From the IMG/VR virus record IMGVR_UViG_3300045988_011095, positions 1 to 6,510 of that record: a DNA stretch of 6,510 nt; one strand, given 5' to 3'. Source of the stretch: a virus. Under the pieces are notes generated by a model. It was not told the origin of the DNA, searched no databases, and was given only the letters and a program-made list of their open reading frames with translations. Below are positions 1 through 6,510 of the stretch, in pieces (the first letter of the stretch is position 1; every line of letters starts with the position of its first letter). Made by a program: the position numbers and the translations under genes.

Positions 1-119
1 AGACCACCAACGATTGCCAGAAGTAGGAAGAGTTTGAACAATATTTCCATAACCAAGATAGCTCAACAACTTAAAAGCCAAATCTCCACGGTTAAAGCCA
101 AATGAATTCGCAAAAAAAC
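1..119. repeat. Terminal redundancy: left copy of the circular-genome overlap, identical to 6392..6510
   Basis: Base-by-base comparison shows 1..119 (agaccaccaacgattgccag...gcaaaaaaac) equals 6392..6510 with no mismatch. This implies a 6391-nt circle. The repeat lies inside the VP1 ORF and keeps its frame. Confidence 0.95.
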
Positions 120-540
120 CAGAATCAGCAGGGCTATTAGAAGAACCATTCAAACGATAAAGGATAAAATTCAAAACACTTAAAGACACAGAAGGCAAAT
201 AAGTTCCAAGCGACAGATTCTTAGTCAAAGACAAAGCTTGAACTTGATTAACGTCCTGCATCTGAGTCAACACAGAAGGAGCGGACTTCCAAAGAAGCCG
301 TAACGGCACAGCATAGAAATCAAAGTATTCACGCAAACGGGTATAAGCAGAAGTTTCAACGGGCTGAGTACGAGTAAAATACTCAATGCTGAATCTATAC
401 TTGTCACCGGGCATAGAAATATCCCAATAAACGGGAAGAAGCTCACCAACTTTCGCAGTAAATGCATTTTTGCGTCCAATATCAAATCCAGAACGATGCG
501 GACGATTTTGAAGATTGGACATTCCAGTATAAGAAGCCAT
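1..540 (-). CDS. VP1: Major capsid protein VP1 (F-like), N-terminal 180 codons; the ORF leaves the left edge and continues at 6391 across the circular junction (full protein 616 aa)
   Basis: ATG at 540..538. My hand translation is MASYTGMSNLQNRPHRSGFDIGRKNAFTAKVGELLPVYWDISMPGDKYRFSIEYFTRTQPVETSAYTRLREYFDFYAVPLRLLWKSAPSVLTQMQDVNQVQALSLTKNLSLGTYLPSVSLSVLNFILYRLNGSSNSPADSGFFANSFGFNRGDLAFKLLSYLGYGNIVQTLPTSGNRWWS. There is no stop, and it ends on a codon boundary at position 1. It is in frame with ORF 5081..6472 and shares the peptide AFKLLSYLGYGNIVQTLPTSGNRWWS. The FD..(K)xFT..xGeLxPV..PGD....R..P...Y....VP.RLLW pattern is the conserved Microviridae capsid N-terminus. The ORF is missing from the track only because it has no in-window stop. 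Confidence 0.93.
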   Translation of the reverse strand, partial: MASYTGMSNLQNRPHRSGFDIGRKNAFTAKVGELLPVYWDISMPGDKYRFSIEYFTRTQPVETSAYTRLREYFDFYAVPLRLLWKSAPSVLTQMQDVNQVQALSLTKNLSLGTYLPSVSLSVLNFILYRLNGSSNSPADSGFFANSFGFNRGDLAFKLLSYLGYGNIVQTLPTSGNRWWS

Positions 541-573: not shown

Positions 574-2271
574 TTAGTCCTGATAAGAAAAGATACCAAA
601 CATATCATTAATCTTCTTGTGCTTAACCTTATCTCGACATTTCATCAATGAAGCAGCAGCCAAGCGACGAACAAGAGGAAGTTTATAGTAGGGTTCTTCC
701 TTATCACGGACAGACCTATTATAACGAAAAGAATAATTACGAAGTTCAAAATCTACCAAATCCTTATCATTAGAATCTTCCAAGGTTTGATAAAAATCTA
801 CAAGACGCATATAATCATAACGATTCCAAAAAGTAACTATTTTTTCAGAAATTATTCGTAAGAATCTTTCTCGACAAAAGAGTTCTCCTCCAGAAGTGCC
901 GCTGGACCAGAAGAGTCCTGAACATCCATCTGTTGAATATGTTCGAATAAATTTTGCAATTCCGAGGAAAAAGCGATAGACGCGGGAGAGACGGTGAGTA
1001 GTTTCCAAATCAACACCATCATACAAACGACATTCAGTAAGAATGAGAACATCACTATGCGGTAAATTCGCTTGAGGAGATAACAAGTTCTTAAATTCAT
1101 TTGATTTTCCATAATTATCTACATAATTTAAATACTGTTTACAAAAAGACAAAAGACTTTGCTTTGAATTTTCAACAAACGGATCACATCCTATATCAGC
1201 GCATCCGCTACGAATGACTCGTGCGGGTGCTGTGAACGCAGCAAATAATAACTGATAAATACTCGATGGAGATTTACGAATAGCGTCTGAAAATCGGGGG
1301 AATAATCGAAGGAGATACGGCCACGAAGGTTTAAGAATCCGAAAGTAGCCATCCCGTTCAATGCGTACTCCATTAAGACACTTATCGGTAACTTCATCAA
1401 TTTCGGATACTCGCACCTTTCGAGGGAAGAGATTTGACTCTGTAAATCCAATGGAGTGGAAGGATTTTGGGCGCAAAAATCTTGGCATCTCTGTGTAAAA
1501 AGAGGGTAAAGCGACAAAGCTATTAACATACGACGCAACATAAGGTGCTGCGAATCCTCGCGAGAGTGTCGCATCACAACGGCCATAAGACCAAGCTTTA
1601 GATACATTTTCAAGAATAGTTTTCGAGAACTGTTCGGAATTGGAAAACAATAACAAATGCCAATGCGGGCGATAACTCGTCGGCCCATATTCTGATACAG
1701 CGTAGTAACGTAATTTCTCATAAGGGTAATAACTTCTTAAACGTTTCAAAAATAAATCAAGGTCACGATTACAAATATAAGGAATCCTATTCGGAACATT
1801 ATGATTAATCTTACTCATAATAGAGAGGAATTCCTTAGGCTTCATAGGATAAGAAAACCGAACCTCAGGGTCCTTAAAAGTACGTTCAACAGTAGAATTT
1901 TTCAGCTTGATAGAAGCGGAGCGAGGAACGCTACGAAAACCAAACAAATAACGATTACTGTCACAAGGGTCCAAGTTATTAATATCGGGAACGCAGGATA
2001 CATCTGCAATATCATCCGTACAAGTTTCGATAATCGAAACCTCCAAAGTAGGAAGAAAGCAAGGAGCATAAGTAAGAGTGACAAAATATACAAAACGGAA
2101 TTGAGCAGAATAAGTAGTAAGCAGGTTTGTCTGAATACCGGAACGACGAAGAACGCATGAAGGACAAGTACCACAAGAAACAACAACAGGTTCATGCGTA
2201 TACTTATTGACAACCGTACGAGGATTCTGGCAACGAGTTACCAACTTATTCTGTAATTCCTTAGTAATCAT
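574..2271 (-). CDS. VP4: Rolling-circle replication initiator VP4 (phiX174 gpA-like, HUH superfamily), 565 aa
   Basis: All three RCR motifs are present in order. Motif I is FVTLTY (aa 63-68, nt 2068..2085, checked against the DNA). Motif II (HUH) is HWH in RPHWHLLLF (aa 203-205, nt 1657..1665, checked). Motif III is YVASYVN, with two Tyr three residues apart (aa 244/248, nt 1522..1542), as in phiX174 gpA YVAKYVNK. The ATG overlaps the stop of the upstream ORF (ATGA at 2268..2271). Confidence 0.93.
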   Translation of the reverse strand: MITKELQNKLVTRCQNPRTVVNKYTHEPVVVSCGTCPSCVLRRSGIQTNLLTTYSAQFRFVYFVTLTYAPCFLPTLEVSIIETCTDDIADVSCVPDINNLDPCDSNRYLFGFRSVPRSASIKLKNSTVERTFKDPEVRFSYPMKPKEFLSIMSKINHNVPNRIPYICNRDLDLFLKRLRSYYPYEKLRYYAVSEYGPTSYRPHWHLLLFSNSEQFSKTILENVSKAWSYGRCDATLSRGFAAPYVASYVNSFVALPSFYTEMPRFLRPKSFHSIGFTESNLFPRKVRVSEIDEVTDKCLNGVRIERDGYFRILKPSWPYLLRLFPRFSDAIRKSPSSIYQLLFAAFTAPARVIRSGCADIGCDPFVENSKQSLLSFCKQYLNYVDNYGKSNEFKNLLSPQANLPHSDVLILTECRLYDGVDLETTHRLSRVYRFFLGIAKFIRTYSTDGCSGLFWSSGTSGGELFCRERFLRIISEKIVTFWNRYDYMRLVDFYQTLEDSNDKDLVDFELRNYSFRYNRSVRDKEEPYYKLPLVRRLAAASLMKCRDKVKHKKINDMFGIFSYQD

Positions 2272-2576
2272 TTTCTATTAGTAAAATCAAGTTCCATTTG
2301 ACGAGGCTTACGACCACGAGCAAAAGAAATATGAACAAATGTACGATATTTTATAAGCTGGTCAAATTTAAAAGGAGAACCTTTAATCTTCAAGATAAAA
2401 CCGTCAACAGAAGAATCGACAGGTTTTAGATCAATGGCATCACCGGTCAAGTGCTGAGATGTTTTAGAACCATTACACATATCATTCTGTTCTTCAGTAC
2501 GAAAAGCGGAAGTAACAGTAAAATGAATATTCCGACGGAGAAGCCACTCAACGAATTTCATTAATTCTAGATTCAT
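2268..2576 (-). CDS. Small zinc metallopeptidase of the M15/LAS type (VanY / D-Ala-D-Ala carboxypeptidase-like fold); candidate peptidoglycan hydrolase (endolysin), 102 aa
   Basis: SAFRTEEQNDMCNGSKTSQHLTGDAIDL matches the S-x-x-R...N...G..x-S-x-H-x-x-G-x-A-x-D signature of peptidase_M15-type cell-wall peptidases. The candidate zinc ligands are H42 (nt 2451..2453), D49 (nt 2430..2432, H-x6-D spacing) and H82 in FVHISF (nt 2331..2333); all three codons were checked in the DNA. There is no signal peptide and no extra binding domain. Third codon positions are T-rich, as in the other genes. Confidence 0.72.
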   Translation of the reverse strand: MNLELMKFVEWLLRRNIHFTVTSAFRTEEQNDMCNGSKTSQHLTGDAIDLKPVDSSVDGFILKIKGSPFKFDQLIKYRTFVHISFARGRKPRQMELDFTNRK

Positions 2577-2579
2577 GAC

Positions 2580-2669
2580 TTACGAAAATATTTGAGCAAT
2601 AGACGTAAGAAGACTGACAGCAGCTGCAATAACTGCAGACCAAATTTTAGATTTAGTTTCACTTTTCAT
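2580..2669 (-). CDS. 29-aa single-pass membrane peptide (MKSETKSKIWSAVIAAAVSLLTSIAQIFS); candidate holin-like or membrane-disrupting partner of the peptidase
   Basis: ATG at 2669..2667, TAA at 2582..2580, 3 nt upstream of the peptidase ATG. It has a Lys-rich N-terminus followed by a roughly 20-residue hydrophobic stretch. Third positions are strongly T-rich (AGT ACT TCT ATT TCT GTT ATT GCT GCT AGT CTT CTT TCT ATT GCT), matching the genome-wide coding signature. The track's 62-aa version (TTG at 2768) extends into a frame that lacks this bias and overlaps the better 57-aa ORF. Confidence 0.5.
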   Translation of the reverse strand: MKSETKSKIWSAVIAAAVSLLTSIAQIFS

Positions 2670-2832
2670 CAGGTATAGCTTTAAATGTTGAACATTGAGA
2701 AATGATAAGAATACAATCTGGACGAAGATTTGAAGAAACAAATGCAGAAACTTCGTCAACAGATACAAGAACAGTTTCGTTCTGATTAGGATTTACCTTT
2801 GACTGGATAGAACACAAATAATACTTTTCCAT
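2659..2832 (-). CDS. 57-aa hypothetical protein, first gene after the promoter (MEKYYLCSIQSKVNPNQNETVLVSVDEVSAFVSSNLRPDCILIISQCSTFKAIPDEK)
   Basis: Hand translated: ATG at 2832..2830, TGA at 2661..2659. It falls below the ORF-track length cutoff. Third positions are T-rich (TAT TAT TGT TCT AAT CCT AAT ACT GTT CTT TCT GTT GTT TCT TTT GTT TCT AAT CTT CGT GAT TGT ATT CTT ATT TCT). Its end overlaps the start of the 29-aa peptide by 11 nt. I recognise no family. Confidence 0.5.
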   Translation of the reverse strand: MEKYYLCSIQSKVNPNQNETVLVSVDEVSAFVSSNLRPDCILIISQCSTFKAIPDEK

Positions 2833-2874: not shown

Positions 2875-2907
2875 CAAAGATATAAATCAAGTTTTTAAAA
2901 AAACAAA
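2875..2907 (-). promoter_or_regulatory. Candidate Bacteroides-type promoter: -33 TTTG (2907..2904), 21-nt spacer, -7 TATCTTTG (2882..2875)
   Basis: The minus strand reads catTTTGtttttttaaaaacttgatttaTATCTTTGtactg. This fits the Bacteroides consensus TTTG-N19-21-TAnnTTTG. It sits in an approximately 18% GC spacer, about 43 nt upstream of the first ATG of the gene string (2832). The -7 motif alone would be expected a few times by chance in a genome of this composition; the support here comes from the paired -33 box and the location. Confidence 0.45.
2891..2904. repeat. Second copy of the A/T-tract palindrome (GTTTTTAAAAAAAC), inside the promoter spacer
   Basis: Read directly. It differs from the 2859..2870 copy by two extra A. 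Confidence 0.75.
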
Positions 2908-5080: not shown

Positions 5081-6510
5081 TTAAGCCCAACCATCAGCAG
5101 ACAAATTACGGGCAACATAACAACCAATATAAGAGTTAACCAAAAGCTGGTCAGTATCCCAAGTAGAATCCGCATTAACTCCAAATATCGAATCAAGAAC
5201 AGAAGGATTAACCTTAAAGAACTTATAATTCAAAACAACATTGTTATTCTGATTAACATCACCTTCATTGTATCCAAAACCAAACCATCCGGAAAGGAGA
5301 GACTCCGTAACAGGAGATACCCAAGATTTGAGAGTAGTAGTAAAGGCACCATTGATAACATCAAGCTTGGTCTTCCAATTAAAGTAACGAGGATTATAAC
5401 CAGCATTAAACAGATTAACTATAGAGGCTTTCGGAGAATTGAAAATCTGTGTCATAGGGAGAGTTTCCATACCAATATTATCAAACTCGGGAATAGGAAG
5501 GGATTCCGCATCAGTTACCAACAATTGACCATCCTGACCAGTGATAGTATAATCAAGCAAAGGAACGGCATGATAAATACACATAACGACACAATGTTCG
5601 TTAGTAGTGTATTCAAAAGTGCCATTACCGGCACCGACACCTTTACCAGCAATAACAGCAGTATCACCTTCTCCAGCAAGATTATTATTGACAACTTCAC
5701 TGATATCAAGATTACGGGAAATACCACCGATATAAGTACACAAATTGGAAAGAGACTGTGGTAAGTTCACACCAAAGTGCTTGCGAATCTGCTCACGATA
5801 ATCGGTATCACCAGACTGACTGATTTCTTTCCAACGTTGAAGGGCCTCAGCTTGGCGAAGAGCAAGAACAGAGAATTGAGATTTAAGGGATGACAAATCA
5901 ACATGAAGCTTAGAACCTGCAGGTACAGTATTAGATGCAGAAGCATCAAATGCAAAAAAGGGAACCGGAGCAGTACCATTAGTAACAGCAGAAGCAATAG
6001 ATACAGTACTATTTTTCGAGTCTTTTCCCAAAAGGACGTCAGAATCTCCAAAAGAACCTATATCAATAACAGAAACATCACCAAATTGAGAGTTTGGGAG
6101 AACACCCATTAACATGTCTTTGTTCCAATTACAATATTTGAGGTCAAACATTGTGTCAGATTTCCAATAGGAAGAAGAAGATACAGGAATAGTAGAAGTA
6201 GTAAATATAGAAGGAGCAGTACCAGAATAGTAATCTACATTATAAGATGAAGGATTGGATTTTTCCCATTGAGACCAACGGAAAAAGTCTTGATAAATTT
6301 TCTGATAAGCAAGAATAGGGAAAATATTAACAACAGTATTTTGAATATAGGCCTGAGTATAAGAAGAAGAAGTGTTATACTTCAAAGACGTAGACCACCA
6401 ACGATTGCCAGAAGTAGGAAGAGTTTGAACAATATTTCCATAACCAAGATAGCTCAACAACTTAAAAGCCAAATCTCCACGGTTAAAGCCAAATGAATTC
6501 GCAAAAAAAC
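5081..6510 (-). CDS. VP1: Major capsid protein VP1, C-terminal part (the ORF enters from the right edge; the true N-terminus is at 540..1 across the circular junction)
   Basis: The frame stays open from the window edge: 6508..6473 reads FFANSFGFNRGD upstream of the track's TTG 'start' at 6472. It contains the capsid-family motif LRQAEALQRWKEISQSGDTDYREQIRKHFGV (ALQ.W.E....G..Y.EQI..HFGV) and NWNKDMLMGVLPNSQFGD. TAA stop at 5081..5083. Confidence 0.93.
   Translation of the reverse strand, partial: FFANSFGFNRGDLAFKLLSYLGYGNIVQTLPTSGNRWWSTSLKYNTSSSYTQAYIQNTVVNIFPILAYQKIYQDFFRWSQWEKSNPSSYNVDYYSGTAPSIFTTSTIPVSSSSYWKSDTMFDLKYCNWNKDMLMGVLPNSQFGDVSVIDIGSFGDSDVLLGKDSKNSTVSIASAVTNGTAPVPFFAFDASASNTVPAGSKLHVDLSSLKSQFSVLALRQAEALQRWKEISQSGDTDYREQIRKHFGVNLPQSLSNLCTYIGGISRNLDISEVVNNNLAGEGDTAVIAGKGVGAGNGTFEYTTNEHCVVMCIYHAVPLLDYTITGQDGQLLVTDAESLPIPEFDNIGMETLPMTQIFNSPKASIVNLFNAGYNPRYFNWKTKLDVINGAFTTTLKSWVSPVTESLLSGWFGFGYNEGDVNQNNNVVLNYKFFKVNPSVLDSIFGVNADSTWDTDQLLVNSYIGCYVARNLSADGWA
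6392..6510. repeat. Terminal redundancy: right copy of the circular-genome overlap, identical to 1..119
   Basis: See feature 1..119. Confidence 0.95.

Follow-up and report, generated by a model that had tools for sequence, protein, structure and literature searches.

How might a microvirus that encodes a murein peptidase with no export signal bring that enzyme to the cell wall of its host? The question is raised by the IMG/VR virus record IMGVR_UViG_3300045988_011095, of which we have analyzed the whole stretch of 6510 nt (the window). In this window an open reading frame (ORF) for a 102-amino acid (aa) zinc peptidase of the M15_3 family lies directly behind one for a 29-aa putative membrane peptide, in an operon that runs on into the gene for the replication initiator VP4/Rep. 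Microviruses that infect Bacteroides rank with the commonest phages of the mammalian gut. Single-gene lysis of the phiX174 E type is the textbook route for microviruses, and we know of no lysis route described for those outside the phiX174 group. The genes for the peptide and the peptidase are both real, under purifying selection and tightly coupled. The sequence suggests that they could form a miniature two-component holin–endolysin lysis cassette, a reading to which we give about an even chance of being right. The conserved and coupled 29-residue peptide and 102-residue peptidase thus provide a concrete two-gene lysis hypothesis. The elements in question are the following.

2875 to 2907, minus strand: promoter motif of the Bacteroides type (TTTG, 21-nt spacer, TATCTTTG), a consensus match found by pattern search
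2659 to 2832, minus strand: ORF of 57 aa, the first gene of the operon
2580 to 2669, minus strand: ORF of the 29-aa membrane peptide, MKSETKSKIWSAVIAAAVSLLTSIAQIFS, a candidate membrane-acting partner of the peptidase
2268 to 2576, minus strand: ORF of the 102-aa M15_3 peptidase, assigned by Pfam and PHROG
2268 to 2271, minus strand: ATGA overlap of the peptidase stop with the VP4 start; the same 4-nt overlap is present in the GenBank relatives

A first-pass annotation made from the letters had placed these three ORFs directly after a promoter, and had the peptidase translationally coupled to VP4 through the ATGA; the promoter and the overlap are there, and every coordinate and junction that it gave is correct. 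The 57-aa ORF has the promoter motif 43 nt ahead of it; this is the sole intergenic match to the pattern TTTG-N17-23-TAnnTTTG, which occurs three times in the window against 0.52 expected. The TGA of the 57-aa ORF falls within the first codons of the peptide ORF (ATGAAAAGTGA), so that the two overlap by 11 nt, while the TAA of the peptide is followed by GTC and then the peptidase ATG, leaving a gap of 3 nt. The junctions from the 57-aa ORF through the peptide and the peptidase to VP4 are invariant in four GenBank relatives, and the three-ORF module is kept in all close relatives. Because of this conservation, and because coding-type substitutions are found only in the peptide's own frame, the alignments indicate that the module is no chance pattern of ORFs. 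The remaining promoter-pattern matches are at 2336–2366 and 1747–1775 on the minus strand; one lies within the peptidase gene at ~65 nt from the start of VP4, where it might serve Rep as an internal promoter. A terminator-like hairpin is present at 2401–2422, also on the minus strand.

Is so short an ORF a gene? Over 58 distinct clade-A loci, among which the peptide is almost invariant, the ratio of non-synonymous to synonymous polymorphism (pN/pS) is 0.097 in its own frame; of the remaining five, four give 1.1–2.1 and the codon-aligned antisense one 0.19. Purifying selection is stronger on the peptide than on the 57-aa ORF (0.264, from 51 sequences) or the peptidase (0.285). At 0.24 the pS of the peptide ORF is roughly half the values of the genes on either side (0.42–0.48), and an extra constraint at the nucleotide level is therefore likely, perhaps arising from coupling or from the structure of the single-stranded DNA (ssDNA) or RNA. 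The GenBank records of the Dulem and bajarodmic viruses do not annotate the ORF, and in some metagenome-derived records gene callers report it as a ‘hypothetical protein’. The peptide has no match in Pfam or PHROG, including phiX174 E and the PHROG lysis families.

The membrane character of the peptide is retained down to ~25% sequence identity. In the window it has a Kyte–Doolittle mean of 1.87 over 19 residues and a Wimley–White octanol sum of –5.7 kcal, with two residues past the helix. In all the variants the 19-residue mean is no lower than 1.77, the N-terminal flank has a net positive charge, and between zero and two residues lie beyond the helix. Together these three properties predict a single-pass, tail-anchored helix with the N-terminus inside and the C-terminus outside, and with no extramembrane domain. 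In the clade-A peptides the helix carries an i+4 ladder of small residues, S11-A15-S19-S23. The single-transmembrane (TM) peptide that the first-pass annotation had recognized upstream of the peptidase is thus a conserved gene, both by its hydropathy and by its coding-type substitution.

The 102-aa protein matches Pfam PF08291 (Peptidase_M15_3) at 41.8 bits (cut-off 23.2, E = 1.3e-10), and PHROG 894 ‘endolysin’ with E = 3.4e-15. Its three zinc ligands H42, D49 and H82 (H-x6-D...H) are invariant in 71 aligned homologues, and in the comparison of 50 microvirus with 21 tailed-phage proteins R26, N31, S40, Q41, H42, G45, A47, D49 and H82 do not vary. The zinc motif S-x-H-x-x-G-x-A-x-D and the C-terminal His are both present, and the first zinc motif aligns with those of T5 EndoT5, 1lbu and ChiX; ChiX is one of only three sequence matches in the PDB. 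An AlphaFold2 model built on 71 sequences has a mean predicted local distance difference test score (pLDDT) of 89.5 and a fold of the LAS/hedgehog-DD-peptidase type. Using Foldseek it finds 34 viral M15A peptidases in BFVD at E ≤ 1e-3, including other microvirus peptidases and tail-protein fusions; in the PDB the best match is 1lbu (E = 2e-3), followed by LdcB, LysB4, ShhN and VanY. The protein has no signal peptide, TM segment or hydrophobic N-terminus, and residues 3–14 form a helix of the predicted fold. The M15/LAS assignment, the H42-x6-D49...H82 zinc site and the lack of a signal peptide, all proposed from the letters, are each upheld.

The earlier suspicion that peptidase-like ORFs had been noted in microviruses is also borne out, and the M15_3 peptidase is already known in these phages rather than new. 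Roux et al. (2012, PLoS One 7:e40418, PMC3394797) described such enzymes in 11 gut Alpavirinae and Gokushovirinae, showed that they had been acquired horizontally, several times over, and proposed an endolysin role, which later papers repeat. An adjacent ‘unknown ORF’ was noted by them in 5 of the 11 genomes, and no membrane peptide was described (PMC3394797). The GenBank relatives label the gene ‘peptidase’, and phages of Stenotrophomonas and Burkholderia have homologues that carry the annotation endolysin. More than 1600 homologues are present in public data, mostly on contigs of ~6.2 kb; an alignment search found no relatives of the peptidase in GTDB species genomes.

The active site departs from that of the tailed-phage homologues, which have ~40 additional N-terminal residues. 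The loop that carries the Glu of their DQLIxE motif is deleted, and the Asp of the classical M15_3 HxD becomes Ser84. All 50 microvirus peptidases in the alignment have Tyr77. A Tyr likewise replaces the DQLIxE Glu in the enzyme of phiHBP1, an isolated, plaque-forming microvirus of Bacteroides fragilis with an M15A metallopeptidase (PMC13064476; GenBank PV598014), so that the variant site is compatible with a working phage. Loss of catalysis through the missing Glu and Asp was considered; given that phiHBP1 shares the Tyr and that the metal triad is invariant, this is not sustained, and remains as a caveat.

How general is the pairing of peptide and peptidase? The peptidase lies directly behind the peptide in all 57 IMG/VR loci that have the peptide, and in 35 of 35 GenBank records of clade B. 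In clades whose peptidase is ~50% identical (IMG/VR loci L048–L053; Dulem viruses 226, 237, 238, 243, 254 and 255; mar56; mar62; OP549867) a peptide of 26–29 aa, such as MKSNNIWKIIIGAVSAALGYVLNAIGL, occupies the same position, its stop usually overlapping the peptidase ATG. The synteny is thus invariant in these loci, but it does not extend to two relatives, bajarodmic virus 429 and Dipodfec virus 499, which have a peptide of this kind without the peptidase.

Some of the GenBank annotation obscures this arrangement. In Dulem viruses 226 and 243 (PP511396 and PP511322, 1138–1512) a coding sequence (CDS) of 124 aa, labelled peptidase or hypothetical, starts 63 nt too far upstream and overprints a 28–29-aa peptide ORF that ends at 1204; the true start is likely to be the ATG at 1201. 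We considered this CDS as a fused TM enzyme and rejected it, as the extension is not hydrophobic and overprints the peptide ORF out of frame. The IMG/VR locus L006 (3230–3330) has a nonsense change at peptide codon 4 (GAA to TAA) together with an 8-nt tandem duplication; it is a genome naturally without the peptide, or else a product of misassembly.

The scheme that we propose for the joint action of the two products is as follows. One promoter would drive a coupled string encoding the 57-aa protein, the 29-aa peptide, the 102-aa peptidase and Rep, with the peptide and the peptidase co-translated from this early operon. The peptidase would be a horizontally acquired and shortened M15_3 zinc enzyme, made in the cytoplasm with no export signal, that cuts the peptide stems or cross-links of the host murein. 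As the host is Gram-negative, the enzyme must therefore cross the inner membrane to act. The peptide would span the inner membrane, its basic N-terminus on the cytoplasmic side and its C-terminus reaching the outer face, and could there accumulate and oligomerize via the small-residue face S11-A15-S19-S23. Accumulation would then trigger permeabilization or depolarization of the membrane, allowing the enzyme to reach the wall and lysis to follow. Within this scheme we infer the permeabilization by the peptide, its functional link to the enzyme and the timing.

The arrangement can be compared with several known systems. Tailed-phage holin–endolysin cassettes, such as the T5 holin with its L-alanyl-D-glutamate peptidase (2mxz), likewise have a gene for a small membrane protein adjoining one for a signal-less M15 peptidase, and the peptide shares with holins that it is a small phage-encoded TM protein whose gene adjoins an endolysin-like gene. 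In contrast to those cassettes the peptide has just 29 residues and one helix, with no cytoplasmic C-terminal tail and no spanin, and the carrier is a 6.4-kb ssDNA phage. With phiX174 E it has in common that a small phage encodes it and that it is a small membrane protein with a single TM segment, but it is one third the length, has its own ORF that is not overprinted, and is accompanied by a muralytic enzyme. ChiW/ChiX of Serratia marcescens (5opz), an M15-type L-Ala-D-Glu endopeptidase with a holin-like partner, resembles the pair in the window; however, the match of ChiX to the window peptidase is weak (E = 0.37), ChiW/ChiX serves the secretion of chitinase, and its holin is of normal size. 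Also close are the gut microviruses of Roux et al. (PMC3394797) and phiHBP1, which share the Pfam family, the kind of virus and host, the horizontal acquisition and the proposed endolysin role. The phiHBP1 enzyme has 134 aa, whereas that of the window has 102 and is without Pfam positions 1–41; the phiHBP1 gene follows Rep and a 54-aa ORF, whereas that of the window is upstream of Rep, behind the TM peptide. In the record of phiHBP1 (L229:84-654), the only cultured Bacteroides microvirus, all the genes except VP1 are labelled hypothetical; the 134-aa ORF at 84–488 is the M15_3 peptidase (62.6 bits).

Small TM ORFs are also found beside M15_3 genes of tailed phages. Two contigs have ORFs of 31 aa (L064, 3737–3832) and 37 aa (L078, 3720–3833) directly before the M15_3 gene, and a crude survey on hydropathy alone, to be taken as a hint, found a neighbouring TM ORF in 8 of 21 cases. 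The 31- and 37-aa ORFs have a single TM segment and basic C-termini, and are possibly very small tailed-phage holins.

A further relationship leads to the chromosomes of the host group. The peptides of bajarodmic virus 429 and Dipodfec virus 499 pass the threshold of the NCBIfam family NF033879 ‘smalltalk protein’ (29.3 and 25.0 bits, cut-off 24.7), and the Pfam DUF6486 (PF20096) cut-off is nearly reached. The peptide of the window gives no match to NF033879 or DUF6486 even at E ≤ 10. When a profile of the peptidase-linked peptides was aligned by hhalign with eight chromosomal smalltalk peptides the probability was 90.8% (E = 1.2e-6), a score reached by none of 200 column shuffles. With a profile–profile match but with the thresholds missed, the window peptide is probably a distant relative of smalltalk and not a member. 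The two have in common a length of ~30 aa, a basic N-terminus, a Trp, one hydrophobic helix and a Bacteroidales setting. A lipobox-like C-terminal [AS]-Cys is present in six of the eight chromosomal smalltalk peptides, and there is no Cys in any microvirus variant.

In five Bacteroides and Parabacteroides genomes (3.5–6.8 Mb) we counted 25 smalltalk genes, 1–14 per genome. A signal-less Amidase_2 gene adjoins 9 of these, and 10 of 20 Amidase_2 genes have a smalltalk neighbour; the upstream neighbour of the smalltalk gene is usually an HU-HIG DNA-binding gene. Thus, like the window peptide, smalltalk is often followed by a signal-less peptidoglycan hydrolase, although this is Amidase_2 rather than M15_3 and the upstream gene is HU-HIG rather than the 57-aa ORF. 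By analogy, one peptide family placed before two unrelated signal-less wall hydrolases, one of a phage and the other of its host group, would be a holin-like pattern; holins likewise pair with unrelated hydrolases. The cassette of HU-HIG gene, smalltalk/DUF6486 peptide and signal-less Amidase_2 is recurrent in Bacteroides and Parabacteroides (L234, L236, L238, L241 and G001–G005), often with a DUF4248-like small ORF on the opposite strand.

These likenesses invite a broader idea, tentative and in our view doubtful, that the microvirus and smalltalk peptides belong to a single family of minimal membrane gates that resemble signal peptides and serve peptidoglycan hydrolases lacking a signal of their own, Amidase_2 for the host and M15_3 for the phage. 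If that were true they would be the smallest class of holin known. On the same idea, the peptide of a microvirus without a peptidase could release the smalltalk-linked amidase of the host and so cause lysis. A more remote thought is that a Cys-less, uncleavable mimic of a signal peptide jams lipoprotein processing and so acts as a single-gene lysis protein.

A number of observations weigh against the holin–endolysin reading. To our knowledge a peptide of 26–29 aa is far below the size of any characterized holin; the charge of this one is at its N-terminus, and the highly charged, hydrophilic C-terminal cytoplasmic tail typical of holins is missing. The PDB fold matches of the peptidase are weak, none better than E = 2e-3 and with TM-scores of 0.4–0.5. 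Its Pfam match covers positions 42–108 of 108, so that positions 1–41 are absent, with 17 residues preceding the match, and no general base could be named near the third ligand from the alignment with homologues. Because the N-terminal third of the Pfam domain is missing and no general base can be named, we infer peptidase activity rather than regard it as demonstrated. The pairing has its exceptions on each side: bajarodmic virus 429 and Dipodfec virus 499 keep such a peptide with no M15 gene, and phiHBP1 has an M15 peptidase but no TM peptide beside it. Fusions of M15A domains with tail or baseplate proteins are found as well, and in principle allow a role in entry. Lastly, the window peptide is below both the smalltalk and the DUF6486 thresholds, and more than half of the chromosomal smalltalk genes have no adjacent hydrolase.

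What else might the two genes do? The peptide could itself be the primary and self-sufficient effector of lysis or killing, either blocking a membrane step of envelope synthesis or depolarizing the membrane in the manner of a type-I toxin, with the peptidase an optional accessory that speeds the breakdown of the wall. We think this unlikely, though still to be reckoned with. It would account for the retention of the peptide without the enzyme in bajarodmic virus 429 and Dipodfec virus 499, for the stronger constraint on the peptide than on the enzyme, for the peptidase having been horizontally acquired several times (PMC3394797), and for Dulem viruses 245 and 263, which have no peptidase but have 63–65-aa membrane or lipoprotein-like proteins. 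Yet in the clade of the window and in clade B the peptide never occurs without the enzyme, its stop-to-start coupling with the hydrolase and the smalltalk–amidase pairing point to joint action, and it resembles neither phiX174 E nor any PHROG lysis family.

The peptide of bajarodmic virus 429 and Dipodfec virus 499 (26–30 aa, MSKVWKEIVRAIITAAISVLTTLGIM) has its ORF flanked by Rep and by a homologue of the 57-aa ORF (53/55 aa), and the two versions differ by five synonymous and four conservative changes. The proteins of Dulem viruses 245 and 263 (L230:4175-4372 and L231:4657-4848) are in the equivalent place; they have an N-terminal basic and TM segment, a lipobox-like QAC or QSC and a tail rich in Ser, Thr and Asn, and may be lipoprotein counterparts of the tiny peptide.

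Alternatively, the peptide might have a membrane role unrelated to lysis, such as superinfection exclusion, anchoring replication or assembly at the membrane, or the function that smalltalk has in the chromosome, with the peptidase acting independently. The location of the peptide in an early operon with Rep would suit such a role, as would phiHBP1 with a peptidase and no adjacent peptide, and the chromosomal smalltalk genes, most of which have no adjacent hydrolase and usually follow an HU-HIG gene. We judge it rather unlikely, since it leaves three things unexplained: the route of a signal-less hydrolase to the wall, the fact that the two genes adjoin and are coupled without exception in more than 90 loci, and the non-random adjacency of Amidase_2 in genomes of 3.5–6.8 Mb.

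It is improbable that the peptidase is instead a virion-associated entry enzyme that opens the wall at infection. Foldseek does find M15A domains fused to Gp5-type baseplate and tail proteins of tailed phages, but the peptidase of the window stands free, at 102 aa and unfused to VP1 or VP2, related lineages do without it, and its free tailed-phage homologues are annotated as endolysins. We know of no microvirus virion that carries an enzyme.

A very improbable alternative is that the 29-codon ORF is no gene, and that the region is a nucleic-acid element such as a translation-coupling sequence or a leader. The low pS relative to the flanking genes and the disrupted ORF of L006 would be in keeping with this, but the low pN/pS confined to the coding frame (set against 1.1–2.1 in four others) and a physical character kept at ~25% identity speak for a protein. 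Finally, read-through of TAA GTC ATG to give a peptide–peptidase fusion, a signal-arrest-release (SAR) endolysin, is effectively ruled out, for although the window ORFs share a frame and are separated by TAA plus one codon, a stop is found in all 107 loci with no fused version among them (TAA in 48 and TAG in 9 of those tallied by codon), the frame relation is not conserved, 5 of 57 loci having gaps of 13, 16, 32 or 56 nt that put the two ORFs out of register, and in clade B the overlap of the peptide stop with the ATG likewise shifts the frame.

If the holin–endolysin reading is correct, the peptide would set a new lower size limit for holin-like proteins, ssDNA phages would be able to use the two-component lysis logic of tailed phages, and the smalltalk/DUF6486 family, of which Bacteroides genomes hold many copies, would gain a function. 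In the searchable literature we found nothing relevant on a microvirus holin or on the function of DUF6486/smalltalk; neither the coupled tiny peptide nor a link between it and smalltalk/DUF6486 is described there. Annotation is affected too: the curated relatives in GenBank lack an entry for the peptide gene, and in some records a peptidase CDS drawn too long covers it.

The first gene of the operon appears to have a different standing. The 57-aa protein gives an AlphaFold2 model of a small beta-beta-alpha-beta fold (pLDDT 88.2); the model has no significant fold match, and the protein has no Pfam or PHROG family. The GenBank relatives annotate it as hypothetical. The family is also present in relatives without a peptidase, where it stands beside a membrane-protein gene, and for this reason it is probably a core gene of the lineage and not specific to lysis. 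Its inclusion in the lysis module, as first suggested, is therefore not upheld: with no fold or family match and with its occurrence in peptidase-less relatives, a role as a lysis component is unsupported.

The window is a complete circular microvirus genome, in which a terminal repeat of 119 nt reduces the 6510 nt to a circle of 6391 nt. All its genes are encoded on the minus strand. Beyond the operon described above its features are as follows.

5081 to 6508, continuing into 1 to 540, minus strand: VP1 capsid gene
Minus strand: gene for a scaffold-like protein of 169 aa
3433 to 4581, minus strand: VP2 pilot protein gene
Between VP2 and the 57-aa ORF: non-coding island of 600 nt
574 to 2271, minus strand: VP4/Rep replication initiator, 565 aa (Pfam PF23343, PHROG 942), the downstream gene in the same coupled string as the peptidase

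The closest GenBank records, at ~83–85% nucleotide identity, are Dulem viruses 236 and 257 and bajarodmic viruses 410 and 1134, which are faecal microviruses from lemurs and rodents. No close relatives of the Rep of bajarodmic virus 429 were found in IMG/VR. A bacterial contig of 112 kb (ENA contig L091, 112,699 bases; 9400–15900) carries a near-identical gene set in integrated form, and the GyrA encoded on this contig is 96% identical to that of Bacteroides heparinolyticus. On the basis of this prophage and the GyrA of its contig, the genes identify the virus of the window as a temperate, Bacteroides-infecting microvirus of the Alpavirinae type. The prophage copy is complete; on one side of it is a gene for a TPR protein, itself downstream of gyrA, and on the other a gene of the Usp family. 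Only at 2847–2949 does the window fail to align with this copy, and the attachment or recombination point is therefore probably in or adjoining this promoter-proximal part of the intergenic region.

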